From Bdellovibrionales bacterium (GTDB lineage Bacteria; Pseudomonadota; Alphaproteobacteria; Micavibrionales; UBA2020), in contig JBBRVE010000004.1 in NCBI GenBank assembly GCA_038247245.1, positions 22,485 to 86,484 on the forward strand: a DNA stretch of 64,000 nucleotides, in the 5' to 3' direction. Made by a program: the position numbers and the translations under genes. Below are positions 18,484-48,402 of this stretch, in pieces. The notes beneath the pieces were generated by a model, which was given only the letters and a program-made list of their open reading frames with translations, had not been told where the DNA came from and made no database searches. How positions within the stretch are numbered: the first letter of the stretch is position 1; each line of letters opens with the position of its first letter.

Positions 18484-18659
18484 ATGACCGCCGTACCGAT
18501 TGGTAATAATATTACAAAATTTTTATCATAATAAGGTATTCAACTCAAGTTCAAAAAGGTTTCAGCCAGACCTGCCATTTTAGCGAATTGTTAATGTCAC
18601 ATGGGTATTATGGAACTGTCACACGGATGTAACAAACGAAGAAAAAGGGCAGCGATCTT

Positions 18660-19616
18660 ATGCAGTTACAGAAACACCAAACCACAGAATCAAAGCCCGC
18701 AAAAACCCCCGATCTCCATGGCAATTTCATCCGCTCCGTCGGTTGCACCGTCCGCAGCTATAAACTGGGTGACCTGCTTGTAAATAGCGGGCTGATCACG
18801 AAATGCCAGCTGGAGAAAGCGCTTCAACATCAAAAAGACACCGGCATCCGCCTCGGCAAGGTGCTGGTTGAACAAGGTTCTCTCTCGGCTGTGCAGCTTT
18901 ACCGCAAGCTGGCCGAACAGTGGTGCATCAAGGCATCGACCGCCGGCATGGCGTTGATGATGCAGGTTGTCACGCCCACTGCCGCAAGCGCGGATCAAGG
19001 TTCAGGACAAAACGTGCGTATGGCCGCCGCCTTCACGACCGCCGCCGTCCGCCCCGCCGTGACGCCCCATGTCGCGCCCGGACTGTTCGGCACGTCCGAA
19101 GTAAAATCAAACGGCGTTGCGATGTTCCCGAAATGGACATCGGTCATGTCGCGTTTTGACAGCCAGATGAAGACGCAAGGCAACAGCAAGACCGTCCGCA
19201 CCTGGAAAGCACAGCTGGAAGGCCTGAAGGGCATGTCCCGCGAACAGCAGATCAAGGAAGTCAACCAGTACATGAACAGCGTGCGCTACGTGGAAGACAG
19301 CCGCAACTACGGCAAGTCCGACCAGTGGTCCACCCCGATCGAGTTCCTGAACAATGGCGGCGATTGCGAAGATTACGCGATTGCGAAATATGCGTCACTC
19401 CGCGCGCTCGGCTTTTCGGCAGACCAGATGCGCGTAGCAATCGTACAGGACAAGATCAAGAACGTGCCCCATGCCATCCTGATCGTGTATGACGGCGGCC
19501 ACACCTATGTGCTCGACAATCAGGACAAATCGACCCGCATGGCCGAAAACGTCAGCCGCTATAAACCCATCTTCTCGCTGAATAGCGACAGCTGGTGGTT
19601 GCATAAACGCGCATAA
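18660..19616 (+). CDS. MshEN-like (c-di-GMP-binding motif) - membrane/signal segment - BTLCP (LapG-type transglutaminase-like cysteine proteinase) fusion protein
   Basis: aa 35-87 read KLGDLLVNSGLITKCQLEKALQHQ-KDTGI-RLGKVLVEQGSLSAVQLYRKLAEQ. Hydrophobic GMALMMQVVTPTAASA. C-terminal GGDCEDYA / NVPHAILIVY / YVLDNQ give a Cys-His-Asp triad. Confidence 0.75.
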   Translation: MQLQKHQTTESKPAKTPDLHGNFIRSVGCTVRSYKLGDLLVNSGLITKCQLEKALQHQKDTGIRLGKVLVEQGSLSAVQLYRKLAEQWCIKASTAGMALMMQVVTPTAASADQGSGQNVRMAAAFTTAAVRPAVTPHVAPGLFGTSEVKSNGVAMFPKWTSVMSRFDSQMKTQGNSKTVRTWKAQLEGLKGMSREQQIKEVNQYMNSVRYVEDSRNYGKSDQWSTPIEFLNNGGDCEDYAIAKYASLRALGFSADQMRVAIVQDKIKNVPHAILIVYDGGHTYVLDNQDKSTRMAENVSRYKPIFSLNSDSWWLHKRA

Positions 19617-19642
19617 ACATACTTCTCATAAATTCTTCGAAA

Positions 19643-19671
19643 GGGCGGCGTAAGTTTACGGCCGCCCTTTT
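19643..19671 (+). terminator. Intrinsic terminator after the BTLCP gene
   Basis: GGGCGGC-(11 nt)-GCCGCCC followed by tttt. Confidence 0.6.
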
Positions 19672-19708
19672 CGTTTCATAGGCATCGGGTCATATACAGG
19701 GAGTTATC

Positions 19709-20146
19709 ATGAAAAAATTCTTCGCGGCGACCGCCGTCGTCCTTGCGCTGTCACTGGCAGCGCAGCTGGACGCGATGGCCGAACAGGCTGCCAGCCAGCA
19801 GCAGGGCGCATCCGGCCAGCAACAGGGCCATCGCGGCCCGCCTCCGCAAAGGCAGCAGGGCAGCACGGATAGCGCGTCAGGTGGTGGCGAACAGCGCGAA
19901 CGCCCGCCACATGACGGCAAATGTCCGCCGCCTCCGCCGCCACCAGACGGCAAGGAAGGTGGCCCACCCCCGGGTCCTCCTCCCGGGCCCCCGCCGGACG
20001 GCAAGCAGGGCGAGCACCCTCCCTGCCCGCCGCCACCGCCCCGTGATGGTCATGGTGGCCCCCCGCCGGACGGCGGAAACGGCGGTCCTCCGCCAGATGG
20101 AAACCGCGGCCCTCCCCCGCAAAACGGAGGCGAAAAGGCCAAATAA
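19709..20146 (+). CDS. Secreted Gly/Pro-rich repeat protein (GPPPDG repeats, two Cys, several His)
   Basis: Good SD (cagGGAGttatcATG). Signal peptide MKKFFAATAVVLALSLAAQLDAMA. Repeats ...DGKCPPPPPPPDGKEGGPPPGPPPGPPPDGKQGEHPPCPPPPPRDGHGGPPPDGGNGGPPPDGNRGPPPQ. Confidence 0.65.
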   Translation: MKKFFAATAVVLALSLAAQLDAMAEQAASQQQGASGQQQGHRGPPPQRQQGSTDSASGGGEQRERPPHDGKCPPPPPPPDGKEGGPPPGPPPGPPPDGKQGEHPPCPPPPPRDGHGGPPPDGGNGGPPPDGNRGPPPQNGGEKAK

Positions 20147-20296: not shown

Positions 20297-20857
20297 TTGG
20301 AACCAGCATCGGATACAGACCACGCGCTGATGCTGCGTATCGCGCAGCAAGATGCGGGCGCCTACCGGTTGCTGGTGGCGCGGCACCTGAATTTCTGCGT
20401 GCGGTTTGGCGAGCGCATGCTGGGCAGCCGCGCCGATGCCGAGGATGTGGCGCAGGAAGTCTGCCTGCGCATATGGAATGACGCCGGCAAATGGCGGCCG
20501 GAGGCGAAGTTCACCACCTGGCTTTATCGCGTGATGACCAATGCCTGTATCGACCACAAAAGAAAAAGACGCATGTTGCCGCTGGGCGACAACGACACGA
20601 CACCCGATACAGGTCCGGGGCCGGAAATTTCGCTGCAGCAGCAGCAACGGTCACGGCAGGTGCAGGCGGCACTGGGAAGATTGCCGCCGCGCCAGCGCGC
20701 TGCCATCGTGCTGAGTTACTACGAAGAACTCGGCAACGAACAGGCGGCAGCCGCAACAGGCCTGACGCTGAATGCGTTCCAGCAACTACTGTACCGCGCG
20801 CGCCAGAGCCTGAAAGACGAGCTGATGGAGAGGGAGAGCAAAGATGGACAAGATTGA
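20297..20857 (+). CDS. ECF-type RNA polymerase sigma factor
   Basis: Region 2 DAEDVAQEVCLRIW...TWLYRVMTNACIDHKRKRR. Region 4 LPPRQRAAIVLSYYEELGNEQAAAATGLTLNAFQQLLYRARQSL. TTG start at 20297; the ATG at 20330 is an alternative. Confidence 0.85.
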   Translation: MEPASDTDHALMLRIAQQDAGAYRLLVARHLNFCVRFGERMLGSRADAEDVAQEVCLRIWNDAGKWRPEAKFTTWLYRVMTNACIDHKRKRRMLPLGDNDTTPDTGPGPEISLQQQQRSRQVQAALGRLPPRQRAAIVLSYYEELGNEQAAAATGLTLNAFQQLLYRARQSLKDELMERESKDGQD

Positions 20858-21110
20858 TGAGTTTTTAGGCGCGTATGCCGTGCGCGACGCCGACCGCGAA
20901 CTTCTGGAACGCATCATCACCGCTGCTGCAGCGCAGCCGCGCCCGGCGCGCCGCCATATTTTTGCGCAGGCGGCTATGTTTGCCGCCGTCGCTGTGACGG
21001 GTTTCTGGCTGGGCAACGCGACGCCCGCCCCGCAAACCGCAACAACCCAGAGCAATTTCATGGATAACGTCATTCTTGGCCCCGACAGCGTGGCCGAGAT
21101 GCAGATGTAG
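20844..21110 (+). CDS. Putative anti-sigma factor (small, single TM)
   Basis: Overlaps the sigma gene by 14 nt. 88 aa with a central TM (IFAQAAMFAAVAVTGFWLG). Called from position and architecture only. Confidence 0.5.
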   Translation: MDKIDEFLGAYAVRDADRELLERIITAAAAQPRPARRHIFAQAAMFAAVAVTGFWLGNATPAPQTATTQSNFMDNVILGPDSVAEMQM

Positions 21111-21122
21111 GAGAAACCCTTG

Positions 21123-21770
21123 ATGAACAACAAAGCCCTGCTTGCCTCCGTCGCGCTCAACGTGTTTCTGGCAGCCTTTATGCTGGGGCGCATGTCGGTG
21201 CTGCCGGGTGGCGCGAACGTGACGGCGATGGTGAAAAACGATACGCGCAACGGCCCGCCCCCGCCGCCCATGTTCGGCCCGCAGGAATTATTCGGCGACG
21301 ACGGCATGAAGGACAATTTCAAGGACGTGCAGGCGCATTTTGAAAAGGTGCAGGTGCTGCGGCAGCAATTCGCGCAGGCGCTGATGAATGGCAAAGTCAC
21401 CGAAGAACAGGCGGCGCAGCACCTGACCGCCATCGACGCCGAAATGGACGGCGTGAAAAAATCCGTGCAGGAGAAAGCGGCTAAAAAAATCGCCGATATG
21501 CCCGACGACAAACGCATCGCCTTTGCCAAACGCCTGATGGAAAAAGCCCCGCCGCCGCCAGATGGCCGCAACGGCCCCGCCGGTTTTGGTGGCCCGCCGC
21601 CAGACGGACATCGCGGCCCACCCCCTGATATGCAACGCGGCCCCGATGATAACTTCCGCGGGCCACCCCCTGACCATGATCGCGGTCAGCCGGAAAATAC
21701 TGATCGCGGCCCGCCGCCGCAGGCCGGCCAAATCCCCGGGGATTTCGATCTGGGAACACCGCCACAATAA
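21123..21770 (+). CDS. Periplasmic Spy/CpxP-like (heavy-metal-sensor-like) protein with a GPPPD-repeat tail
   Basis: AGGAGA SD 8 nt upstream of the ATG at 21123. N-terminal anchor/signal. Helical LTxxQ-like segment (KVTEEQAAQHLTAIDAEM). Tail APPPPDGRNGPAGFGGPPPDGHRGPPPDMQRGPDDNFRGPPPDHDRGQPENTDRGPPPQ. Confidence 0.55.
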   Translation: MNNKALLASVALNVFLAAFMLGRMSVLPGGANVTAMVKNDTRNGPPPPPMFGPQELFGDDGMKDNFKDVQAHFEKVQVLRQQFAQALMNGKVTEEQAAQHLTAIDAEMDGVKKSVQEKAAKKIADMPDDKRIAFAKRLMEKAPPPPDGRNGPAGFGGPPPDGHRGPPPDMQRGPDDNFRGPPPDHDRGQPENTDRGPPPQAGQIPGDFDLGTPPQ

Positions 21771-22348: not shown

Positions 22349-22431
22349 GTGACGCTCCGGTTGATTTTATGAAGGGCAAAGTTTCAGCGTGGCCGAAAGT
22401 TCCGCTTCAGAACAATGGCGCGCGGAATGAA

Positions 22432-22734
22432 TTAGAAGTTGTCGGAGAGATAGCAAGGCGTGCAGCGCACGGGTTGCTGGTTTTCGAATTCGACCAGCAT
22501 CAGCACGCCGCGCTGGCGGGCGGTGTCGAGGATGCCCTGGCTGACGTCTTCGAAGATCGCGTAATGCGCTTCGGTGCCGGCGACGATGCGGTTTTCCTGG
22601 ATGGTGAACCAGAACGGGCCTTCTTCGGGGTTGCCGTCGAGGGAGGCGTGTTTATAGAAGAAGAAAGCGAGCGCGTTGCGCCCGTTCTTGAAAACTTCGT
22701 ACTCGGTCACGACGGATTTATCGGCCTGAGCCAT
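22432..22734 (-). CDS. Hypothetical protein (100 aa)
   Basis: Natural amino-acid composition, unlike the overlapping plus-strand ORF. No motif recognised. Confidence 0.5.
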   Translation of the reverse strand: MAQADKSVVTEYEVFKNGRNALAFFFYKHASLDGNPEEGPFWFTIQENRIVAGTEAHYAIFEDVSQGILDTARQRGVLMLVEFENQQPVRCTPCYLSDNF

Positions 22735-22769
22735 GGTAAGCGCCCCTTAGAAACTCCCCCGGACGAGGA

Positions 22770-22943
22770 TCAGCGCGTAGGATCGATGCTGTCGGCGGCG
22801 TTCATGCCTTTCGGCTTGGCGGCTGCTTCCTGCGTACGGTTAAGGGCCATGGTGGGGTTGGTTTCAAGATACGAAAACGCAATCTCCTGCGCATCCGCTC
22901 CTGTTTTCGCTCCGACCGCTGCACTGCTTAACAGATTGGACAT
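22770..22943 (-). CDS. Small hypothetical protein (57 aa, below the ORF-track cutoff)
   Basis: Hand translation: MSNLLSSAAVGAKTGADAQEIAFSYLETNPTMALNRTQEAAAKPKGMNAADSIDPTR. GGAAGGAG SD upstream of the ATG at 22943. Ends 35 nt before the next gene on the same strand. Confidence 0.35.
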   Translation of the reverse strand: MSNLLSSAAVGAKTGADAQEIAFSYLETNPTMALNRTQEAAAKPKGMNAADSIDPTR

Positions 22944-23061
22944 CCCTTTGCGCTCCTTCCGGTATTTCTAGCCTATGCGACTATTAAACCTTAATAAAGT
23001 TAATTTTGAGTTTACATAGGCGCGGGATTCCGCGCATGGGAAAACAGGTCGTAACCGTCTG

Positions 23062-23601
23062 TTATAACGTAGGATTTTTGGGGTGACGCGGGGTGTCGTC
23101 GAGCGGGCCGGTCAAGGGGCCGGTGACGAGGCCATTTTGCGGCCCGTTTTGGGCGCAGTTTTCGCGCAGCTGCAGCAGTTCTTTTTTCACGGCGGCAAGT
23201 TCGGTGCGCAGCTGGTCGGCCTCGTAATCCTTGTCCATGAATTTGAGGCGCGAGACATAGGTCTGGCCGTTTTCCGACGGCACGGCGGCGGCGAAATTCC
23301 AGCCGCTGTCTTTCAGCAGGCGGAACATTTCCGTTTTACCGTCATGCACGACGGAGCGCAGGTAACCGGTATCGAGCGTGCGTGAACCCGGCGCCTCGAT
23401 CAGCAGGCGCGCCATGCGCACCTGATTGTTGGATACGGCCTTGGCCAGCGCCGCATCAAAAACCGCGGGCGGCGCCTCGATGTCTTTTTGCAGCAAGATG
23501 CGCAACGCCTCGATATTGCCTTCCTTGACCGCTGTCACCAGTTGCGATTTGTATTCGGTGATGGGGTCGTCTTTGCCGCCGAAGAATGTGCGAATGCTCA
23601 T
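23062..23601 (-). CDS. Ankyrin-like repeat protein with a C-terminal coiled-coil
   Basis: LVTAVKEGNIEALRILLQKDI...ALAKAVSNNQVRMARLLIEAPG...VVHDGKTEMFRLLKDSGWN are degenerate ANK-like helices, followed by DQLRTELAAVKKELLQLRE. Overlaps the upstream gene by 4 nt. Confidence 0.5.
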   Translation of the reverse strand: MSIRTFFGGKDDPITEYKSQLVTAVKEGNIEALRILLQKDIEAPPAVFDAALAKAVSNNQVRMARLLIEAPGSRTLDTGYLRSVVHDGKTEMFRLLKDSGWNFAAAVPSENGQTYVSRLKFMDKDYEADQLRTELAAVKKELLQLRENCAQNGPQNGLVTGPLTGPLDDTPRHPKNPTL

Positions 23602-28652: not shown

Positions 28653-29402
28653 TCAGGGTGATTTCGGCTTAAACGTCGCCGTGCGCGGTGCGGCAAGCGG
28701 CGTGCCCGCGCCGGTCTTCAAATTCTGGATCACGTTTTCGACGTCTTTTTTGCGTGCTGTTTCGGTGCGGTGTTCGACCACGATATTGATTTCGGATTCC
28801 AGCCCCGTTTCGATTGCGAATGTCATGTGCCGCGCTTCATCCAGCGCGGTGTTGCCCATTTTATCGCGCAGGGTTTCATCCATCCCATGCGCCAGCAGCA
28901 CGCGGATCACGTCCTGCGCGCCCCTGTCATCATCCGCCCAGATCGCGTAATGCAACGCGCTTTGTTCTTCGCGGTTCACGGCATTCACGGCTGCGCCATG
29001 TTTGATCAGCGCGGTTGCACAATCGGCGCAACCCGCGCGTGATGCCGACATCATCGGCGTATAAAGCTGCGCATTGCCAAGGTTGGCATCCGCGCCTTTT
29101 TCCAGCAGCCATTCGACGGCATGCACATGGCGCTTGGACGTTGCCACCAGCAGCGGCGTTTCGCCGACGATGTTGCGCGCATGGATATCCGCACCGGCAT
29201 TCAGCAAGGCTTCCATCACCTTCATATGCCCGTGATACGCGGCAAGGTGCAGCGCGGTCGTGCCCATCACCTGCTTGGTCGCCTTGTCGGCAACCGCTTC
29301 CTTCGCAAGGTTGGGATAGGCCGCCAGCATGTTGCGCACACCCTGGTCATGGCCGCGCGCTGCAAGGTCGAGGAATTGTTCAAGCAAAACCGGCTTCGAC
29401 AT
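28653..29402 (-). CDS. Ankyrin-repeat protein (tandem paralogue A)
   Basis: GTTALHLAAYHGHMKVMEALLNAGADIHARNIVGETPLLVATSKRHVHAVEWLLEKGADANL and further ANK repeats. Start at Met44 (ATG at 29402), 1 nt after the upstream stop. Confidence 0.8.
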   Translation of the reverse strand: MSKPVLLEQFLDLAARGHDQGVRNMLAAYPNLAKEAVADKATKQVMGTTALHLAAYHGHMKVMEALLNAGADIHARNIVGETPLLVATSKRHVHAVEWLLEKGADANLGNAQLYTPMMSASRAGCADCATALIKHGAAVNAVNREEQSALHYAIWADDDRGAQDVIRVLLAHGMDETLRDKMGNTALDEARHMTFAIETGLESEINIVVEHRTETARKKDVENVIQNLKTGAGTPLAAPRTATFKPKSP

Positions 29403-29403
29403 G

Positions 29404-30228
29404 TTACGGCGCTGCCCCTGCTGGTGGTTTCTTTTTAAAATGCGCGGTGGTGGGGCCGTGCAGCGGCTTGCCTGCGCCATGCTGGAACGGGGCGGCCAGT
29501 TTGCCGAAGCATTCCTTATGCGTTGCCACATCGTTGCGGTTCTTCATCAGCAGGGCGTGCGCGGCGGCGCTTTCGATAAACGCGGCGACTTCGAATTTTC
29601 CCTCGGCGCGGGCGTTATCGGCGGCTGTATACCCCTCCATATTGCGGAGATTGGCATTGATGCCGCGGTCCAGCAGCAGGCGGATCACGGGTTGCGGGCA
29701 GTTTTCGGCATGGATGGCGAAATGCAGCGCGCTGTCCATCGCCTCGCTGCGCGCATTGATTTTCGCTTTATGGTCCAGCAGCGTTTCGATCACCGCCATC
29801 GCCCTGTTACGCGCGGCATACATCAGGGGCGTGTAACCTTCGGAGGCTTTATGATTGGCGTTTGCGCCCTTTTGCAGCAGGAATGCCGCAACATCGGCCT
29901 GCGCATGCATCGCGGCTTCCATCAGCGGCGTCTGCCCCATCAAATCCTCGGCATCCAGCTTCGCGTGCGCCTGCACTAGATCCTGCACGATGCCCAGATG
30001 CCCGCCACGGGCGGCCAGATGCAATGCGGTTGAACCCGTTTGCATCCCATGCGCATCAAGCTTGCGCACTGAATGCACAAGCCCCTTGAAGTTGGCCAGC
30101 ATGTCGTTCACGGCAGCGCGGTCGCCATTCGCCGCCGCATCCAGAAAGCGCGTCACCAGCTTGCGGCGCGTCGTGCCCGATATCGGGCCCGTCGGTTTCG
30201 CGCTGCGGCTGTTAAATGTCGGCTTCAT
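29404..30228 (-). CDS. Ankyrin-repeat protein (tandem paralogue B)
   Basis: GSTALHLAARGGHLGIVQDLV...GQTPLMEAAMHAQADVAAFLLQKGANANHKASEGYTPLMYAARN. Start taken at Met14 (ATG at 30228). Confidence 0.8.
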   Translation of the reverse strand: MKPTFNSRSAKPTGPISGTTRRKLVTRFLDAAANGDRAAVNDMLANFKGLVHSVRKLDAHGMQTGSTALHLAARGGHLGIVQDLVQAHAKLDAEDLMGQTPLMEAAMHAQADVAAFLLQKGANANHKASEGYTPLMYAARNRAMAVIETLLDHKAKINARSEAMDSALHFAIHAENCPQPVIRLLLDRGINANLRNMEGYTAADNARAEGKFEVAAFIESAAAHALLMKNRNDVATHKECFGKLAAPFQHGAGKPLHGPTTAHFKKKPPAGAAP

Positions 30229-41689: not shown

Positions 41690-44290
41690 TTAGGTCTCTC
41701 CATCTTTCTTCTCGGCATCAACGCCGATGACATCCGCCCAGTTGAGCGGGGATTTAACTTGTTGATCGGCCGCCTTCGCCAATTGCTCCACCGCAGGCGC
41801 GGGGTCCCAGGGCGGTGACATCATGGGGGGCTGCTGTTGCACTGGCGGCTGCACTGGTGGCTGCACAGGTGCCTGAACCGGCGTAGCGGGTGCTTCGTTG
41901 CGCGCTTCGGCGACCGCGTTTTGCCCAACGGTCGCGGACGCGCCGCCGATGACATCCATCCACGAAATAGGTGCGGGGAGTGCGGCTGCAGATGCGGCCA
42001 CGGCCGCTTCCTTGGCAGGTGCGCCGCCCGCGCTGATGACGTCTTCCCACGACACCGCTTTTGGCGCTTGCGTTGCCTGCGCAGACTGTTGCGCCGCCTG
42101 CGCTTCGGTAACGGGCGGTTCCTTGCGAATGCTGCTGGATGATGCATCGGCAGCGCCGATGACCTGCATCCAGTTGAGCGGGCCTGTGTTGCCGGTTGCC
42201 TGTGCCACAGCCACGGCAGCGGCTTTTTCGGCTGGCGATGTGATGGCAGCGGTTGCGGGCGCGCCGGCACCGGTCGCAGGAGCATCCACGGCGGCTGCGT
42301 CTTCGGGTTTGATCGTGCTATGCGCTTCGGCGACCTGTGCGACCGCGTTGATGCCGCATTCCAAAAGGCTGCCGCCCGATTTTTTCGCGGCGGCAAAGCC
42401 TGCGGCCAGCGCCTCGATATCATTATTGGTGCCGGATTGCAGCGCGGCGGGGTCCCATTTCGGGTTGCGCAGCCGCTTGAGGATGTCGTTCACGTTACGC
42501 AGTGATTCCAGCGCCTCTTCCGCCGGCGGCGGGATAGGCAGGAAGCGGTGGACGCGCATCGATTTCGCATCGCCGATGTGCGAGTTATACACCTGCATCT
42601 CGACCACGCTCTTGCCGAAGGCGACAATCGCACGCCCCTCCGTGAAGCCTTTCAGGCCATCATAGGATGCGCGTGCGCGCTGTTGCACGTTTGCCTGCTG
42701 GCTGTCCATATACGCCTTGCCGGAACCACCGCCCTGCCCGCCGCGCGAGAAGCCGGAGACTTCGGTCACCAGCGCGGTACCGACAGTTTTTTCAAAAAAG
42801 TCTTTTGTCTGGGTCGGGTCTTCAAGCTTGCCGAACAGTTTGATGTTACAGTTTGCCGTGATGGACCGTGCTTCTTCCTTCACGCGTTTTTCCAGCGCGG
42901 GCAAATCCTGACCGGCGAAGACGAGCGAGAAGCCGAGCGAACGGGCCTGCGCCGCCATGACCGCCATACCCGACGCGGTATAGTAACCGACCTCGTCAAA
43001 GATCGCGATGAAGGGGGTGGAGGAGTTGGTGGGTTTGTTCTCGATCACGACGGATGATTCACCCTCGACCGAGTTACCGAGCGTCGCACCCATCATACCC
43101 TTCAGCGTGGAGGAAATGATTTTACCAAGGTTGGCCGTTTCATCGCCCGATTTTTCAAGGGCGGGGATCAGCACGATCAGGATGCGGCGATTCAGGACGA
43201 CGTCGAGCATGTCGATATCGGCCGCCTGCGTATCGAAGATAAATCCGTAATCGTCGCCAAGCGACTGCATGGAGCGCGTGAACTGCATGGAAAGGTAACC
43301 ATGCTGCTGGCGGGGGACGGAGGTATCGACCGCGCCCGCATCGGGTGGCATCGGCTTTTCGTTTCCTTCGTCGTCGAACACGTGGTCGACATAGCCGGGC
43401 AATTCGTTCAGGTAGCCCTTGACCGCCGCGCGCAACGATTCCGGCACCGCCGCGTCGCGGCTGAGCTTGATGATGGCCTTGAACAGCAGGAACTGGCGGA
43501 TGACGCCGATCGACAGCGGGATGTTCTGGTTTTCGCGTTTCCACACAAGGCAGGGCATCAGCGACGAGACAAGCGCGACGGCGCGTTCTTTCCACATCGC
43601 GTTGTCGCCTTCGGAATCCGGCATCAGCGAAGTGAGCATGTTCGTAAGGTAAGACGGCGAGCCCGAGGAGAACGGGTTCAGCGTGTTCGACGGCACGCGG
43701 CCCGACACGTTACCCGTCATATAGTTCATGATCAGCAAATCGTCGTCGCGGCCAAAGCGGCGTGCCATCGCCGAGATTGTCGACCACAAGGACGTATCCG
43801 CTTTACCGTCGATGTAAATGAATCCCGATGCCCAGCACAGCGCGTTGCAGGCATAGGATTTAAGGCCGTAGGTTTTACCCGAACCGGTGGTGCCGAGGTA
43901 AAGGCAGTGCGTGCGGGCATCCGAGTTGGTAAACCAGATTTCTTCGTTCGTTTCGTGGTCGTTGCCAAGATACAGGATCCCGTCGGCCATGCCGAGCGAC
44001 CCGTCGGGCTGTTTGAAATTGGGATCCTTGATCAACGCCGATTTCGGCAACTTGAACGGCAGTGACACCTTTTGCTTCATCAGCCAGCGGAAATAAAGGC
44101 AATAGATGATGAAAACGATATCGCCGAAGTACTGCAGTGCGGGCGTCGCCAGAAAGCCGGTCGCTACCATTGCAAAAATGATAGACGCAGTTGAGGGATC
44201 AAGCGCGGTATCCTTCATGCGCACGGTCCACGGGCGGGCGTCGCGGAGGAGATCCGAGCCTTTTATCTGATATTTTTCCCGCAGAGCCAC
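41690..44290 (-). CDS. Type IVB coupling protein, DotL/IcmO (IncI TrbC)-like ATPase with a long repeat-bearing C-terminal tail
   Basis: 866 aa, GTG start. Two N-terminal TMs, PFKLPKS, Walker A LGTTGSGKT, ARRFGRDDDLLIMNYMTGN, SNTLNPFSSGS and Walker B IAIFDEVGYY. These blocks match my recollection of Legionella DotL rather than VirD4/TraG. Confidence 0.8.
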   Translation of the reverse strand: MALREKYQIKGSDLLRDARPWTVRMKDTALDPSTASIIFAMVATGFLATPALQYFGDIVFIIYCLYFRWLMKQKVSLPFKLPKSALIKDPNFKQPDGSLGMADGILYLGNDHETNEEIWFTNSDARTHCLYLGTTGSGKTYGLKSYACNALCWASGFIYIDGKADTSLWSTISAMARRFGRDDDLLIMNYMTGNVSGRVPSNTLNPFSSGSPSYLTNMLTSLMPDSEGDNAMWKERAVALVSSLMPCLVWKRENQNIPLSIGVIRQFLLFKAIIKLSRDAAVPESLRAAVKGYLNELPGYVDHVFDDEGNEKPMPPDAGAVDTSVPRQQHGYLSMQFTRSMQSLGDDYGFIFDTQAADIDMLDVVLNRRILIVLIPALEKSGDETANLGKIISSTLKGMMGATLGNSVEGESSVVIENKPTNSSTPFIAIFDEVGYYTASGMAVMAAQARSLGFSLVFAGQDLPALEKRVKEEARSITANCNIKLFGKLEDPTQTKDFFEKTVGTALVTEVSGFSRGGQGGGSGKAYMDSQQANVQQRARASYDGLKGFTEGRAIVAFGKSVVEMQVYNSHIGDAKSMRVHRFLPIPPPAEEALESLRNVNDILKRLRNPKWDPAALQSGTNNDIEALAAGFAAAKKSGGSLLECGINAVAQVAEAHSTIKPEDAAAVDAPATGAGAPATAAITSPAEKAAAVAVAQATGNTGPLNWMQVIGAADASSSSIRKEPPVTEAQAAQQSAQATQAPKAVSWEDVISAGGAPAKEAAVAASAAALPAPISWMDVIGGASATVGQNAVAEARNEAPATPVQAPVQPPVQPPVQQQPPMMSPPWDPAPAVEQLAKAADQQVKSPLNWADVIGVDAEKKDGET

Positions 44291-44316
44291 TTGTGTGCCG
44301 CTTCCTTATATTAAAC

Positions 44317-44820
44317 TTACTTGCCGCCGAACAGCTGGTCCGCCGGTACCGGTTCACCTGGCTTGGCGTAGGGGTTACGGCCCAGTTCCGTGCCCTGCAT
44401 CGTGGGGCGCGCAGGCTGCGCATTGCCGCCCGCCATATAATTGCGCACGGCGGTCGATGCCGTATCGAGGACGAACAGCAAGAAGATGATCGCCAGCCCC
44501 CATTTGACGACGCGCCACAACGTGCCGTTGCCCTGATTGCCGCCCGCCTGCACATCGCCGCGCAGCATGGCGCGCGTGATCATCTTGTGCGCATGCGCAG
44601 CACTTTCGCGGTCGGGATAAGTCGCGATCACTTCTTCGGGCTGGCCGGATTTATTCAGGATGACGCTCGACTTGCCGCCTGCGTCGCGGATTTCAAGGGT
44701 TGCCGTTGCAAGCCCGGACATATCCGCGCGCCAGACTTTCGGCTGTTCGCCGGAAAATGACACCACGAGGGCGGAGCCGACAACCTTGGCATCCACGTCT
44801 TTGCTTGTGCAGGCGAACAT
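44317..44820 (-). CDS. Hypothetical single-TM protein (167 aa) inserted between the DotM-like and DotL-like genes
   Basis: AAGGAGA SD 6 nt before the ATG at 44820. About 110-aa soluble domain, TM (WGLAIIFLLFVLDTAS) and a Pro-rich tail. Confidence 0.55.
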   Translation of the reverse strand: MFACTSKDVDAKVVGSALVVSFSGEQPKVWRADMSGLATATLEIRDAGGKSSVILNKSGQPEEVIATYPDRESAAHAHKMITRAMLRGDVQAGGNQGNGTLWRVVKWGLAIIFLLFVLDTASTAVRNYMAGGNAQPARPTMQGTELGRNPYAKPGEPVPADQLFGGK

Positions 44821-44832
44821 ATCCACTCTCCT

Positions 44833-46011
44833 TTATGCGTCTTCTTTTTTCGCGCCTTTTTTCTCGAGCTCGGGGATCGGGCGGGCAGCGGTGCTTTTCA
44901 TGTAAACCTCGAGGCCGCGGATCACCTCGTCGAAACGGGGCGTCGGAATTTTCTGGCCGGCGATCAGCTCGTTCGTGAAATGCACGAGCGCGCCCGATGC
45001 CTCGGCGCAATAGGATTTGCGGCCCAGGTTGTTCAGCGGATACCAAAGCGTCCTGTCATGGCCGCGCATCCAGACGAATTCAGCGGGCGCCATGACGCCG
45101 CCTTCTTCGCGCGCGCGCATCACGCAACGCAGTATGGCGGTGGTTTCATAGGCATGCTGGTCGGCGAATTTGCGCAGCGCACCGCCGGTCTTGGGGTTTT
45201 TCATGACCGCCTTGACCTTGGCTTTCAGCTTGGCGGAGGCGCGGAAGCCGCCTTCGGGCGTCCAGCTTTCCGACATCATGTTCAGGATTTCTTCGCAATC
45301 CTTACGCTTGCGGATCAGCTTCAGCGCGCAGGCGGCATACAGGCATTGGGCGTGGATCGGTAGCGCATCGGGGCCTTCCCAGCGTTTGCCCAGCTGTTCG
45401 GCAAGGGCGTGATAGGCGGCGTTGTAATCAAGCTGGCCGCCGGAATAGCTGATTGAATGATAGGCGAGCCATTCTTCGGGCGACAGCGCCTCCGAAAACA
45501 GCGGCAGCTGTTCCGGCACTGGCTGGCCGGGAGCGCGGCCCGGCATCTTGCGCGGGTCGAATTTCAAAAACGGCTTGATCGCGGGGAATGATTTCGCCTG
45601 TTCCTGCATCAGCGTCTCGAGACCCATCTTGCGGCGGTATTGCGTGCCGGGGCCGCGGAAAATGGTAAAGACGGTCATGACTGCCATGATCGCAAGGAAG
45701 ATATATTTAAGCGGCACCACGGCGACAAGGGTGGAGCGCTTGATATGCTCGATCGTGATATCCTCGACCGGAGCCTTGGGCAGCCAGTTCTGCCAGACAT
45801 GCAAAAGCTCGCGGCCCTGCGCATCACCGATGCCGAAATTTTTGCCGTAGACGCCGCGCACGACCCACATTTCGGCGATGCGCACATAGCGGACCATGTT
45901 GGTCAGTTCCGCGCTAAAGAAATGCCAGATCACCCAGCACAGGCCGGCGACTATGCCCACGATGATCGTGAACATGATGAAATCTTCATGCGGACTTTTC
46001 TGCTGCGACAC
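44833..46011 (-). CDS. DotM/IcmP (IncI TrbA)-like inner-membrane protein
   Basis: 392 aa. Two TMs (aa ~13-33 and ~95-117), then a cytoplasmic domain with HAYETTAILRCVMRAREEGGVMAPAEFVWMRGHDRTLWYPLNNLGRK, resembling the DotM C-terminal domain as I recall it. Sits immediately upstream of the DotL-like gene, as in icmP-icmO. Confidence 0.65.
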   Translation of the reverse strand: MSQQKSPHEDFIMFTIIVGIVAGLCWVIWHFFSAELTNMVRYVRIAEMWVVRGVYGKNFGIGDAQGRELLHVWQNWLPKAPVEDITIEHIKRSTLVAVVPLKYIFLAIMAVMTVFTIFRGPGTQYRRKMGLETLMQEQAKSFPAIKPFLKFDPRKMPGRAPGQPVPEQLPLFSEALSPEEWLAYHSISYSGGQLDYNAAYHALAEQLGKRWEGPDALPIHAQCLYAACALKLIRKRKDCEEILNMMSESWTPEGGFRASAKLKAKVKAVMKNPKTGGALRKFADQHAYETTAILRCVMRAREEGGVMAPAEFVWMRGHDRTLWYPLNNLGRKSYCAEASGALVHFTNELIAGQKIPTPRFDEVIRGLEVYMKSTAARPIPELEKKGAKKEDA

Positions 46012-47172: not shown

Positions 47173-48402
47173 TTAAGCCGCCAGCACCTGTGTGGCGTCC
47201 TTCATCTGCTGTTTCAATTGCTTGGCAGCAAGGGCGTAGCCACCGTCCGATCCATCGATGAAATGGAAATGCTGGCTGGCATAGTCAAAAATAATACAGG
47301 TCATCAGCGCAGAGGGCGCGGAATGGATGCCGTAGAAAATCTTGCCCTGCCCCACCAAAATGTCGAAATAATGGCGCAGTGATGCTTCTTTTTCCGCCGA
47401 TACGTCCATCACAAGACGTAGCGTGTTATCGAACTTGATATAGTCGTTATGCGACTCCAGCGATTTCTTATACGTCTTGCCATCCAGCGTGCCGGATTTC
47501 AGGCCGAACCTGAACATCAGCTTGCCGATGCTCGACATCAGCACGGTTTCCCAAAGATATTTCAGATAGGCCTTGCGCCCCTGCCCGCGCGTCTGCAACT
47601 TGGCTTCAGCCGACAACCGCGCGGGAGTGTTGCCGAGCGTCAGCTGGCCGGCAGATACCGGTTTCCAGTTGGCGGCAGGGCCGCATAATTCTTCGATATT
47701 GCCGAGCATGTCGGCATAGAGCGCGGCTTTTTGCGTATCGTCGCCCTGCCGTGCCTGCACGATAATGGAAAGATCGACGCCGTTGCGCGCATAAAGCGGC
47801 TGCCAGCGGCATTGCAGCCCTTTGAAATCGGGCGGCTTGGCGGCAAGCGTATGCTTGGGGAACAGCGCGGTGATGTCGTGCTTTGCGCCCTCCACTTTAT
47901 CTTTCACAATCTTTTCGGCGAGTGTCACGCCATCACCCGATAGCGCTGCCTGATAAACACCCGGCGCGACTTCCATTTTTGCGACACGCACCGGCGCGTT
48001 CATCTGGCGCAGCTGTTCGGCGAAAATAATGCCGGCGCGCATTTCGAGGTTGAAGATTTCTTCGGACATCAGCCGCGTGCCGTATAGTGCGGCGGCAACA
48101 TCATAAACAAGCGCGGCAGGCACCAGCAGCGTCGCGCCATCGCCGCCGAAGATATAGGCGATTTCTTCGCGCCCCGCCGCATTCAGCACCGCGGTGATGC
48201 TGGAGGCCGAGATCATGTTGACGTCTTTGTATTTCCCTGCCTCGATCGCCTTGGTCGAACCCACGATATCGACAATCACCACGCACCAGTCATCGGGGAT
48301 GTCGTTGTGTTGCGCGATATCGAGCATCCCGCCGCCCGAGGCCAAGGGCGGAAGGTCTTTATAAAAACTGCGCGATGCTGAAGCGTCCATGACCGACAGC
48401 AT
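47173..48402 (-). CDS. Class III nucleotidyl-cyclase-like protein (possibly DUF3095 family; name from memory)
   Basis: WCVVIVDIVGSTKAIEAGKYKDVN and IFGGDGATLLVP resemble the two metal-Asp segments of the cyclase homology domain. About 250 aa of extra C-terminal sequence. Confidence 0.65.
   Translation of the reverse strand: MLSVMDASASRSFYKDLPPLASGGGMLDIAQHNDIPDDWCVVIVDIVGSTKAIEAGKYKDVNMISASSITAVLNAAGREEIAYIFGGDGATLLVPAALVYDVAAALYGTRLMSEEIFNLEMRAGIIFAEQLRQMNAPVRVAKMEVAPGVYQAALSGDGVTLAEKIVKDKVEGAKHDITALFPKHTLAAKPPDFKGLQCRWQPLYARNGVDLSIIVQARQGDDTQKAALYADMLGNIEELCGPAANWKPVSAGQLTLGNTPARLSAEAKLQTRGQGRKAYLKYLWETVLMSSIGKLMFRFGLKSGTLDGKTYKKSLESHNDYIKFDNTLRLVMDVSAEKEASLRHYFDILVGQGKIFYGIHSAPSALMTCIIFDYASQHFHFIDGSDGGYALAAKQLKQQMKDATQVLAA

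Follow-up and report, generated by a model that had tools for sequence, protein, structure and literature searches.

In the window (the whole stretch of DNA that was analysed, 64 kb long), one gene encodes a 318-residue protein in which, as sequence comparison strongly supports, a conserved Sec-signal-like segment links a cyclic-di-GMP (c-di-GMP) receptor module of the MshEN_N type to a cysteine protease of the LapG/DvhG kind. We tentatively propose that the product is a one-polypeptide, c-di-GMP-controlled periplasmic cysteine protease, a reading in which both the control by the nucleotide and the export are what we infer. In the Micavibrio clade the gene is ancient, belongs to the core set and is maintained under selection. 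Control of periplasmic proteolysis by c-di-GMP is a textbook case of inside-out signalling and, to our knowledge, has so far always involved two proteins, namely a receptor, which is either LapD (with degenerate GGDEF–EAL domains) or DvhD (with an HD-GYP domain), and a protease of the BTLCP family. The fusion family would represent a third solution, evolved independently, in which an MshEN_N receptor fold is placed on the protease itself.

Architecture of the fusion protein

Residues 35-87 (nt 18762-18920) read KLGDLLVNSGLITKCQLEKALQHQ-KDTGI-RLGKVLVEQGSLSAVQLYRKLAEQ, a pair of 24-residue motifs with a spacer of 5 residues between them, as in the MshEN consensus of Wang et al. 2016 (PMC5013675), which the preliminary description of this DNA had given correctly. 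Only two residues deviate from it, K35 and S74, the latter at position 11 of motif II, one of the hydrophobic core positions. The Arg-to-Lys change in the first copy, listed earlier as an exception, is no defect, because the consensus has been widened to (R/K/L)LG and Lys at position 1 is natural in the tightest (nanomolar) binders known (PMC11731258). The tandem motif is borne out by the NCBIfam model NF053729 (‘c-di-GMP_motif, MshE-related’), which is matched over its full length (1-53/53, 65.2 bits with a cutoff of 38, E=3e-18) and is also passed by 8/8 distant orthologs (45-60 bits), among them those of two M. aeruginosavorus genomes. Profile searches of the N-terminus were thus successful with NCBIfam and not with Pfam, since T2SSE_N gives no match to this region even at E≤1 (only a weak match to DUF4388 was obtained), and Pfam-based annotation therefore overlooks the module. 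A profile of the family matches MshE (5HTL, E=9e-12) and PilF (E=2e-21) in the PDB. In the AlphaFold model (pLDDT 73-93 across aa 31-90), the predicted fold superposes on MshE and PilF with bound c-di-GMP at 0.6-1.1 Å, with a Foldseek rmsd of 0.6 Å over 55 columns at 51% identity for 5HTL (MshE) and of 0.9-1.1 Å for 8PDK. Because the curated HMM, the PDB profile matches and the predicted fold agree, the module is considered a genuine MshEN_N, and its assignment as a four-helix c-di-GMP receptor, which would bind the ligand, is strongly supported by sequence and model.

In 121 family sequences, L36, G37, L51, L55 and Q58 of motif I are 98-100% conserved and L65, G66, G73, L80, L84 and Q87 of motif II are 91-100% conserved, while position 1 is Lys (70) or Arg (51) in motif I and mostly Pro (50), Arg (37, as in the window protein) or Gln (31) in motif II. 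Mutations that cost MshE more than 10-fold in affinity fall on L10, G11, L25, G40, L54 and L58, whose counterparts here are L36, G37, L51, G66, L80 and L84, all of them within the same 91-100% range.

The sensor abuts a hydrophobic stretch that ends in A-x-A, present at aa 96-111 as described earlier (GMALMMQVVTPTAASA/DQ), and this forms part of a segment with the layout of an export signal: an n-region (K91), an h-region (A92-V104) and a c-region (T105-P106-T-A109-A-S-A111). Conservation in the 121 sequences reaches 90% or more for S93, A95, G96, P106, A109 and A111 and 82% for M100. In the window protein the h-region has a short run of 13 residues, Gln102 among them, and is of weak hydrophobicity (KD ~1.2); that of a distant subfamily has 16-18 uncharged residues with Lys/Arg on either flank and could just as well act as a signal-anchor. 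Despite these different h-region sequences, the geometry of Lys/Arg, h-region, Pro(-6) and small(-3)-x-Ala(-1) is found in both subfamilies. The hydrophobic segment is more conserved than is usual for a mere signal peptide. AlphaFold predicts that helix α4 (aa 77-102) extends into it, a continuity that is uncertain, like the conformation of the linker, because pLDDT is <50 across aa 96-137. In view of the conserved Pro(-6)/Ala(-3)/Ala(-1), the short and weak h-region and the lipobox-bearing cousins described below, a cleaved export signal is no less likely than a membrane anchor. In the linker, V119 (93/121), L/M121 (115/121), A122 (120/121) and A124 (99/121) are conserved. Self-cleavage of the linker at a canonical LapG site was considered and rejected, as [T/A/P]AAG occurs in 1/121 sequences and the conserved motif is V-R-L-A-A-A-F.

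The protease domain matches Pfam Peptidase_C93/BTLCP (PF06035) at aa 193-297 with 68.7 bits (cutoff 27) and the LapG structures 4U65 (3e-33) and 4FGO (7e-30) in profile searches. The predicted model, with pLDDT mostly >90 in this domain, is aligned by Foldseek to the same two structures with E ~1e-11 to 1e-10 and TM 0.67-0.69. Cys236, His271 and Asp286 occupy the positions claimed for the catalytic triad and are invariant in 121/121 sequences, as is the calcium motif D235-C236-E237, whose equivalent in DvhG (D316/C317/E318) was shown to be essential (PMC13090378). These matches and the model strongly support the assignment of aa 140-318 as a BTLCP protease of the Ca type, akin to LapG and DvhG. 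The domain had been called LapG-type, and this stands in so far as it is a complete LapG-like BTLCP with the D-C-E motif; by sequence, however, it is not a LapG ortholog, with its nearest relatives of the DvhG/DvhD type and the cutoff of the LapG equivalog NF045674 missed (98.7 vs 320 bits, and 99-118 bits in the orthologs). The LapG interface residues A169/Y176/V205/Y206 map onto P270/Y277/I304/F305, which are similar residues and do not discriminate.

The open reading frame exists as claimed (Table 1), and its length is at least 90% covered in 118 of the 120 best homologs. Values of dN/dS are 0.09 for aa 21-91 (71 codons), 0.034 for the export-signal-like segment and 0.025 for the linker (aa 112-139, against the closest relative), i.e. 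~0.03-0.09 over aa 21-139, and 0.07 for the protease domain. Strong purifying selection thus acts on all parts from residue 21 onwards, which indicates that the fusion is real and translated. The exact start codon, within the leader of aa 1-20, is uncertain, and a close homolog (P0001) is annotated with a longer N-terminus. The gene appears to be monocistronic. The candidate promoter lies in the intergenic region common to the divergently transcribed hldE, and the terminator-like hairpin, which the consensus scan did not pick up, was equalled in folding by 0/200 shuffles.

Table 1. Features of the fusion gene and its flanks (coordinates in the window)
Feature	Position	Strand	Basis or remark
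Whole gene, MshEN_N–export signal–BTLCP fusion (assignments predicted)	18660..19616	+	318 aa + stop; ORF list and sequence
Unconserved N-terminal leader, aa 1-20	18660..18719	+	dN/dS 0.33 to ~1; columns without conservation
Family-specific pre-motif segment SFIRSVGxxVRSY, aa 21-34	18720..18761	+	Conservation; AlphaFold helix aa 23-29, moderate pLDDT
MshEN motif I KLGDLLVNSGLITKCQLEKALQHQ, aa 35-58	18762..18833	+	NF053729 match
5-residue spacer KDTGI, aa 59-63	18834..18848	+	Spacing identical to MshE
MshEN motif II RLGKVLVEQGSLSAVQLYRKLAEQ, aa 64-87	18849..18920	+	Conservation; model overlay on 5HTL
Junction and export-signal-like segment, aa 88-111	18921..18992	+	Conservation; predicted signal peptidase I site between 18992 and 18993
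Acidic start (DQ; DD in the family), then low-confidence linker, aa 112-139	18993..19076	+	pLDDT <50
Linker motif V-R-M-A-A-A-F, aa 119-125	19014..19034	+	Family form V-R-L-A-A-A-F
BTLCP (Peptidase_C93) domain, LapG/DvhG-like, aa 140-318	19077..19613	+	Pfam PF06035, profiles, Foldseek
D235-C236-E237, catalytic Cys between calcium-binding Asp and Glu	19362..19370	+	Invariant, 121 sequences
Catalytic Cys236	19365-19367	+	Invariant, 121 sequences
Catalytic His271	19470..19472	+	Invariant, 121 sequences
Catalytic Asp286	19515..19517	+	Invariant, 121 sequences
Shine-Dalgarno-like AAGGG	18645..18649	+	Sequence; 10 nt 5' of the ATG at 18660
Candidate sigma-70-like promoter TTGGTA-18-TATCAT	18500..18529	+	Consensus scan, 9/12 matches; weak
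Terminator-like GC-rich hairpin, then U-rich tail	19638..19677	+	RNA fold -21.9 kcal/mol, z=-3.1

Distribution and genomic neighbourhood

The fusion gene is present in 18 species genomes of the Micavibrio clade, including that of the cultured M. aeruginosavorus, and always adjoins hldE; in the annotating sources it is named only “transglutaminase-like cysteine peptidase”. Throughout the clade it lies in a synteny block of housekeeping genes (hldE, FGase, DD-carboxypeptidases, ClpA/S and pyk), and a clue to the substrate, sought in this neighbourhood, was not obtained from an apparently monocistronic gene in such a block.

The earlier statement that the window holds no LapD-like, giant adhesin or T1SS gene was confirmed over the 64 kb by Pfam searches of the large ORFs, regular expressions and tblastn, which detected no LapD-like, DvhD-like, T1SS or RTX gene, no diguanylate cyclase or adhesin gene and no GGDEF, EAL, HD-GYP, PilZ or RTX motif. 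A receptor of the DvhD type (dCache–PAS–HD-GYP) adjoins the closest unfused (plain-BTLCP) relatives in 45/62 loci, as opposed to 0/25 fusion loci (the window and 24 others) with a DvhD-type or LapD receptor gene, although these 25 represent one syntenic region of one lineage and are not 25 independent observations. From this difference, the sensor in cis appears to take over the role of the receptor in trans, which supports the LapD-independence that had been suggested for the protein. The genome could still encode a receptor outside these loci. Adhesin or T1SS genes were likewise found near the fusion gene in 0/25 loci. In M. aeruginosavorus, a c-di-GMP phosphodiesterase homolog has been reported, together with a 2,892-aa LapA-like RTX protein that contains a von Willebrand factor motif, adjoins T1SS genes and is attachment-induced.

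Proposed mechanism and alternative readings

Insertion with the N-terminus in and the C-terminus out would keep the sensor in the cytoplasm and bring the protease to the periplasm. Helix α4 would bear half of the ligand site (L80, L84 and Q87), with the h-region starting at most 4 residues later, and because this half-site continues into the h-region, ligand occupancy would act directly on the export signal. In the preferred mechanism, the binding of c-di-GMP would decide between export, with release by signal peptidase I at the A-x-A site, and retention at the inner membrane, and this gating in cis would stand in for the sequestration in trans exerted by LapD or DvhD. If the signal is cleaved, as is likely, the protein would work through control of export or release, and not through reversible sequestration or allosteric inside-out signalling. 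In the Lap and Dvh systems, high c-di-GMP keeps the protease off its substrate; by analogy, high c-di-GMP would retain the fused protease and a fall would release it. The released protease would then clip a surface adhesin at a retention module exposed to the periplasm and, in a lineage of epibiotic predators, its release could govern attachment to prey or detachment from it, so that c-di-GMP-dependent shedding of an adhesin could explain the prey attachment/release switch of M. aeruginosavorus. Both the direction of the switch and the identity of the substrate are guesses made by analogy. One-way proteolytic release would be a poorer switch than reversible sequestration, which is an objection to the preferred mechanism.

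The segment could instead be an uncleaved type II signal-anchor that tethers the protease permanently, with c-di-GMP altering its oligomerisation, position or reach. This would be true inside-out signalling in cis across the inner membrane, as the preliminary description had proposed, and we consider it possible, if on the unlikely side. It would have a precedent in DvhG, experimentally known to be a membrane-anchored BTLCP with a disordered linker (PMC13090378), and would agree with a hydrophobic segment and linker as well conserved as the catalytic part, more than is usual for a signal peptide that is discarded, with the borderline membrane-spanning length of the 16-18 uncharged residues in the distant subfamily and with the predicted continuity of α4 and the hydrophobic segment. 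However, an anchor has no need of the A-x-A and the Pro at -6 that both subfamilies conserve, and the weakly hydrophobic h-region of the window protein, only ~13 residues long with Gln102 inside, is ill suited to the role. The lipobox-bearing cousins also imply processing in the same architectural class, and a single helix followed by a disordered linker of ~30 residues would be a poor allosteric conduit.

Another unlikely reading keeps the architecture and changes the output, the periplasmic target being something other than an adhesin of the LapA/DvhA type. HvyA, another BTLCP of the Alphaproteobacteria, shares the triad and the Ca residues and controls capsulation (PMC4241560). The absence of adhesin and T1SS genes from the 25 fusion loci would fit such an output, as would the invariant neighbour hldE, a gene for the synthesis of LPS-core heptose, although this adjacency carries little functional weight because the two genes belong to a long syntenic stretch of housekeeping genes (ClpA, DD-carboxypeptidases, pyk). 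On the other hand, the closest unfused relatives belong to the DvhD-linked clade (that of the 45/62 loci), whose characterised member cleaves adhesins, and the giant LapA-like RTX protein of M. aeruginosavorus, with its von Willebrand factor motif and adjacent T1SS, is a candidate target.

It is improbable that the MshEN_N module is degenerate and does not bind c-di-GMP, serving as a structural or dimerisation domain or as a long extension of the signal peptide. Some MshEN-like domains, such as that of XpsE, are non-binders (PMC12943098), and in this family two thirds of the members have Pro or Gln at the first position of motif II (Arg in the window protein), Ser74 occupies a core hydrophobic position and only the 53-residue MshEN_N is present, with the MshEN_C half absent. 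Nevertheless, the key affinity residues remain 91-100% conserved over ~40-92% sequence divergence, position 1 can vary without harm or even with benefit (PMC11731258), MshEN_N-only proteins are a recognised class in Wang et al. (PMC5013675) and the module scores well over the curated cutoff. An annotation artefact, in which translation starts at Met97-101 (Met97, Met100 and Met101 do exist in the window sequence) and yields only a signal peptide and a BTLCP, is effectively refuted, as Met97 is replaced by V/L/I in 98/121 homologs, a start at Met100/101 would leave a truncated h-region and no n-region, and the upstream part is both under purifying selection over its 71 codons and matched by NF053729 in every ortholog tested.

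The layout of MshEN_N and a hydrophobic segment was also found before multihaem c-type cytochromes (CXXCH), which must be exported and so bear on the topology of the class, before C39 cysteine peptidases, where the segment ends in a lipobox Cys that implies cleavage, and before TSP3/dockerin repeats and a ~135-aa domain without assigned identity. These proteins carry one to four MshEN_N modules immediately ahead of a putative Sec or lipoprotein signal, on what would be its cytoplasmic side. A more general proposal, which we regard as doubtful, is that MshEN_N acts as a portable cis-acting c-di-GMP gate on export, with the BTLCP fusion of Micavibrio as one case of it. If true, such a gate would be a substrate-specific, post-translational control of the general secretion pathway by a second messenger, distinct from the known regulation of secretion ATPases. 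As a single gene of 318 aa, the fusion would offer a minimal system in which to study the effect of a cytoplasmic ligand on an export signal. Since annotation of the Pfam/InterPro type misses MshEN_N-only modules, a class of putative exported c-di-GMP effectors currently goes unseen.

Comparison with known systems

The literature found on MshEN with LapG or transglutaminase, on BTLCP with c-di-GMP and on Micavibrio with c-di-GMP does not describe an MshEN_N–BTLCP architecture, nor is this among the entries of the architecture table of Wang et al. 2016. That table (Suppl. Table 4) does contain an MshEN_N–Peptidase_M23 protein, the NlpD of Acaryochloris marina (PMC5013675), which is the sole published MshEN_N–peptidase fusion that was found and whose peptidase is presumably extracytoplasmic as well. 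It differs in clan (a peptidoglycan metallo-endopeptidase) and is known as a table entry only, without a link to Lap-type proteolysis.

The ATPases MshE, PilF (GSPII-B) and PilB share with the fusion the 24+5+24 motif and the four-helix fold, with 47-51% identity over 53 residues, and PilF also has Lys at position 1. Their domain controls the cytoplasmic secretion or pilus ATPase of the polypeptide it belongs to and precedes an MshEN_C/T2SSE_N1 half, whereas the fusion has only MshEN_N, which abuts the export-signal-like segment. MshEN(_N) is likewise a portable input on envelope-related enzymes in NfrB, the c-di-GMP-activated glycosyltransferase of E. coli, and in EpsG-type MshEN_N fusions, and both rank next among the NCBIfam matches of the N-terminal region; their outputs, however, face the cytoplasm, with no export signal between sensor and enzyme.

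Among BTLCP proteins, HvyA of Caulobacter crescentus, which blocks capsulation, is also alphaproteobacterial, is periplasmic and conserves the triad and the Ca residues (PMC4241560), but its signal is a classical N-terminal one, it lacks a sensor domain, and its activity is set by cell-cycle transcription and proteolysis instead of c-di-GMP. With the LapG/LapD system of Pseudomonas fluorescens and Legionella pneumophila, the fusion has in common a BTLCP with the C-H-D triad and the D-C-E motif and, presumably, its periplasmic location, its Ca dependence and the setting of the protease's access to its substrate by cytoplasmic c-di-GMP. In the LapG type, the retention module of a T1SS or TPS adhesin is cut at [T/A/P]AAG, and the window contains no such substrate. 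LapG is a free soluble protein with a cleaved N-terminal signal, whereas the signal-like segment of the fusion is internal (aa 91-111), behind a presumably cytoplasmic module of ~90 residues. LapD, which carries a GWxQ loop, is a separate receptor (LapD/MoxY periplasmic domain–HAMP–degenerate GGDEF–EAL) that sequesters LapG via a Trp-in-pocket contact, and it is absent from the vicinity of the fusion gene, whose predicted receptor has a different fold (MshEN_N) and is on the same chain as the protease.

DvhG of Desulfovibrio vulgaris is a BTLCP whose N-terminal hydrophobic helix and disordered linker tether it to the membrane (PMC13090378), and it is next to DvhD-type receptors that the nearest unfused relatives of the window protease are encoded. 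DvhG has no cytoplasmic sensor domain and depends on DvhD, unlike the fusion family, which does without a DvhD neighbour in 25/25 loci, and its linker has ~180 residues, compared with ~30 in the fusion.

The fusion gene and its two domains

The preliminary description had transcribed the 318-aa fusion ORF exactly, as judged from the ORF list and the sequence, and two 24-residue motifs with a five-residue gap make up residues 35-87. The protein has 1,078 matches among 5.8 billion proteins; 118 of the top 120 span 90% or more of the query, with identities of 50-92%, and these 120 homologs, together with the protein itself, form the conservation alignment (n=121). Compared with the closest relative, the MshEN part (residues 21-91) has a dN/dS of 0.089, the hydrophobic segment 0.034, the linker 0.025 and the protease domain 0.070, residues 1-20 being almost free of constraint. 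Sequence conservation thus indicates that the fusion of sensor and protease is real, translated and conserved. An internal start, raised earlier as a way in which only a signal peptide and the protease would be made, is rejected because Met97 is replaced by V, L or I in most homologs. The gene is divergent from hldE and therefore monocistronic, and its stop codon is followed by a GC-rich hairpin and a U-rich tail (z=-3.1).

The MshEN consensus given in the preliminary description matches that in print, RLGxx(L/V/I)(L/V/I)xxG(L/V/I)(L/V/I)xxxxLxxxLxxQ, two copies of which form, with a 5-residue spacer, a 53-residue domain (PMC5013675). The proposed module is covered end to end by NCBIfam NF053729 ('c-di-GMP_motif, MshE-related'; 65.2 bits, cutoff 38, E=3e-18), and a Pfam scan gave no T2SSE_N match to the protein, which is probably why every source naming a homolog uses only 'transglutaminase-like cysteine peptidase'. 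Residues L36, G37, L51, L55, Q58, L65, G66, G73, L80, L84 and Q87 are 91-100% conserved (n=121), and at position 1 motif I has K/R and motif II has P/R/Q (n=121). In MshE, mutation of hydrophobic or Gly positions lowers affinity more than 10-fold, and mutation of Arg9, Asp12 or Gln32 5-fold or less (PMC5013675). A study of PilF widened the consensus to (R/K/L)LG, found Pro at position 1 of one PilF GSPII-C motif, and reported Lys as natural at this position in the tightest binders, DgPilB2 (13.5 nM) and CtPilB (53 nM) (PMC11731258), so the R-to-K deviation flagged earlier is benign. The family profile matches MshEN domains of known structure and verified ligand, in Thermus PilF (GSPII-B 8PDK, 2e-21), Vibrio cholerae MshE (5HTL, 9e-12) and several PilB proteins. 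In an AlphaFold model of the fusion protein (116-sequence MSA, mean pLDDT 78.7, block means 73-93 across aa 31-90), the module has four helices (36-42, 48-61, 65-71 and 77-102) and superposes on c-di-GMP-bound MshE at 0.6 Å (55 columns, 51% identity); with bound PilF GSPII-B the fit is 0.9-1.1 Å. An exhaustive phmmer search of residues 1-115 against 1.84 billion representatives returned 3,384 proteins, 406 at E≤1e-10. The N-terminus is a mainstream MshEN_N module, and its domain identity as a predicted c-di-GMP receptor is strongly supported by profiles and model.

The protease assignment also stood, Pfam Peptidase_C93 (BTLCP) matching residues 193-297 at 68.7 bits (cutoff 27). D235-C236-E237, H271 and D286 are invariant (n=121), profile matches reach LapG structures at 3e-33 (4U65_E) and 7e-30 (Legionella 4FGO), and Foldseek aligns the model with both at TM 0.67-0.69. 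A 2026 Desulfovibrio study takes the C-H-D triad together with a neighbouring calcium motif (D316/E318 around C317) as the mark of LapG-type activity, with [T/A/P]AAG as the pattern at which substrates are cut (PMC13090378); this D-C-E calcium motif of DvhG is present and invariant in the fusion protease. The protein misses the LapG equivalog threshold (99 vs 320 bits), and the domain counts as LapG-like rather than as a LapG ortholog.

Distribution and genomic neighbourhood

In a survey of one genome per GTDB species, the full-length fusion was found at 18 loci, all in Micavibrio or Micavibrio-like MAGs, the best match being a 'Micavibrio sp.' MAG (68% identity); carriers include M. aeruginosavorus CP066681 and the cultured strain HCB189 (NZ_CP195303), at ~40% identity to the window protein. 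The window itself most likely derives from an alphaproteobacterium related to Micavibrio. Two odd labels among these genomes arise because NCBI taxonomy places Micavibrio under Pseudobdellovibrionaceae. Eight distant orthologs were tested, and each scores above the curated c-di-GMP-motif cutoff. Divergent hldE, the fusion gene and, further downstream, pyk keep this order at nearly all fusion loci, even where hldE is only ~45% identical. The fusion gene is therefore an ancient core gene of the Micavibrio clade, passed on vertically. The surrounding housekeeping genes give no clue to function.

All remaining genome matches are plain BTLCPs that carry ordinary N-terminal signals and align only from residue ~70-156 (mostly ~120-143). 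Their conserved divergent neighbour encodes a ~700-aa protein (dCache, PAS and HD_5, that is HD-GYP) with exactly the architecture of DvhD. A tblastn comparison finds a DvhD-like gene at 45 of 62 plain-BTLCP loci, 42 of them with 250 or more aligned residues, and at none of 25 fusion loci, the whole 64-kb window included; the comparison is local to the loci, and its fusion side is one syntenic region of one lineage. This complementary distribution of fusion and DvhD is strongly supported. The protease domain thus falls near a clade paired with a trans-acting c-di-GMP receptor; in the Micavibrio lineage this partner is absent locally, a different c-di-GMP receptor being fused in cis. The 45 paired loci belong to Alphaproteobacteria (Dongia, Rhodospirillaceae, Geminicoccaceae) and Gammaproteobacteria (Thiocystis, Marichromatium), and Dvh-type pairing is thus widespread beyond sulfate reducers. 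Ten of these loci gave a match to a ~420-aa EAL-domain gene, which lies downstream of the BTLCP gene in the three inspected.

The fusion gene is directly followed by one for a proline-rich protein that bears a signal peptide and repeated GPPPDG/PPPDG units; next come genes for an ECF sigma factor, a small putative anti-sigma and another PPPDG-repeat protein. Pfam has no match for either repeat protein. This cassette occurs in the closest relatives (L001, L002) and is missing from loci L003 and L005. Elsewhere in the window, Dot/Icm-type IVB coupling-protein genes and ankyrin-repeat genes, the latter in a small bacterial genome (~2.2-2.6 Mb), hint at eukaryotic-host interaction or effector-like functions. 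An MmeI-type restriction-modification gene (916 aa) sits between sodC and the ankyrin gene in L001, the contig of the closest relative, and is missing at the counterpart site (window ~22350-23060), pointing to strain-level variation in defence islands.

Coordinates of the fusion gene and of features in the window and in related loci
Feature	Location	Strand	Remark
Fusion gene	window 18660-19616	+	318 aa
Linker motif	window 19014-19034	+	aa 119-125
Proline-rich repeat protein	window 19709-20146	+	
ECF sigma factor	window 20297-20857	+	
Putative anti-sigma	window 20844-21110	+	
PPPDG-repeat protein	window 21120-21770	+	
Ankyrin-repeat proteins	window 23062-23601, 28653-29531	-	also L005:6310-6786
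Dot/Icm-type genes	window 41690-46011	-	
DotL-like TraG-D_C protein	window 41690-44290	-	
Small ORF among Dot/Icm genes	window 44317-44826	-	
DotM_C	window 44833-46011	-	
DUF3095 protein	window 47173-48402	-	363 bits, full-length match; adjoins Dot/Icm genes
MmeI-type gene	L001:13795-16545	-	
DvhD-type genes by plain BTLCP (examples from L024-L086)	L025:7541-9655; L074:7613-9697; L034:7499-9640	-	
EAL-domain genes in plain loci	L025:10680-11942; L034:10635-11897	+	

The putative export segment and a wider class of proteins

The sequence of the segment in the window's subfamily is K91-ASTAGMALMMQVV-TPTAASA/DQ (slash, predicted cleavage site), with one basic residue, a weakly hydrophobic core of 13 residues that includes Gln102, and a c-region with Pro at -6 and Ala at -3 and -1 (118-119 of 121), beyond which come acidic residues. 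A distant subfamily has a wholly different core of 16-18 residues, and [A/V/S/T]-x-A lies five residues past it in 14/14 sequences examined. Such a Pro/A-x-A pattern is needed by a signal peptidase I substrate and needless for an anchor. What counts against simple disposability is the conservation of the segment, which equals that of the catalytic core. In the AlphaFold model, α4, which carries the ligand-site residues L80, L84 and Q87, runs directly into it, confidence falling sharply past residue 95.

Just past the predicted cleavage site lies a linker motif, V-R-(L/M)-A-A-A-F, whose A122 is kept in 120/121 sequences; it is rich in di-alanine yet holds no canonical [T/A/P]AAG LapG site, and the distant subfamily has another conserved stretch, (I/V)KDVPAQ…, in its place. 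Possible roles are those of pseudo-substrate, pro-peptide or docking strand.

A crude hydrophobicity filter picked out 31 of the 150 best representatives from the N-terminal search, and ~25 of these were judged genuine: MshEN_N, in one or many copies, is followed at once by a basic patch, then by a hydrophobic stretch, an A-x-A-like site and a C-terminal domain. Each of eight representatives checked has 3-4 modules above the curated cutoff. Two proteins (P0180, P0197) carry doubled-CXXCH c-type cytochrome motifs behind the modules; haem attachment to c-type cytochromes is periplasmic (Ccm/Ccs pathways), and these domains argue for an N-in/C-out topology. In three C39/PA2778-type cysteine peptidases (P0199, P0215, P0235) the hydrophobic stretch closes in a lipobox (LAGC, LASC, LNAC), suggesting that the segment is processed in the wider class and that its MshEN_N modules can act only before or during export. 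TSP3 and dockerin Ca-binding repeats follow MshEN_N in P0122 and P0129, some members end in a ~135-aa domain without assigned identity, and P0133, P0150 and P0165 belong here too. Sources name these proteins by C-terminal domain only, and the class, whose MshEN_N modules directly precede a Sec-type or lipobox signal, is apparently undescribed.

Proposed mechanism and comparison with known systems

The sensor would lie in the cytoplasm and the protease in the periplasm. Binding of c-di-GMP would stiffen α3/α4 of MshEN_N (Tm rises ~5 °C on binding in MshE variants retaining it; PMC5013675), and the stiffened helices may act on the adjoining export signal and so control export or signal-peptidase release, a reading given somewhat less than an even chance. 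A permanent tether signalling inside-out is rather unlikely: a single helix and a ~30-residue disordered linker would transmit allosteric change poorly, and both the A-x-A sites and the lipoboxes point to processing, for which reasons control of export or release is preferred.

By analogy only, high c-di-GMP would bar the protease from its substrate. In M. aeruginosavorus the gene directly upstream of TolC/HlyB/HlyD is for a 2,892-aa RTX protein that has a von Willebrand factor motif and an expression index of 16.9 in attachment phase and 0.3 in attack phase (PMC3189940); its architecture resembles that of LapA, making it a candidate substrate class. The same species has a Bd1971-type cNMP/EAL phosphodiesterase homolog (PMC6717892). 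That the output has instead a target other than a LapA/DvhA-type adhesin is suggested by HvyA, a Caulobacter BTLCP that blocks capsulation (PMC4241560), and seems improbable.

Full text on MshEN, LapG, BTLCP and Micavibrio c-di-GMP, in which subscription journals are thinly covered, gave no description of the MshEN/BTLCP fusion, and the architecture table of Wang et al. includes MshEN_N–Peptidase_M23 and others with BTLCP absent (PMC5013675), so the architecture is provisionally undescribed. A cultured host carries it, which makes bench work feasible. Both domains, and the logic from c-di-GMP to a BTLCP, are already known from LapG and DvhG with their separate receptors LapD and DvhD; what is new is the wiring, in which another receptor fold is placed in cis, before the export signal.
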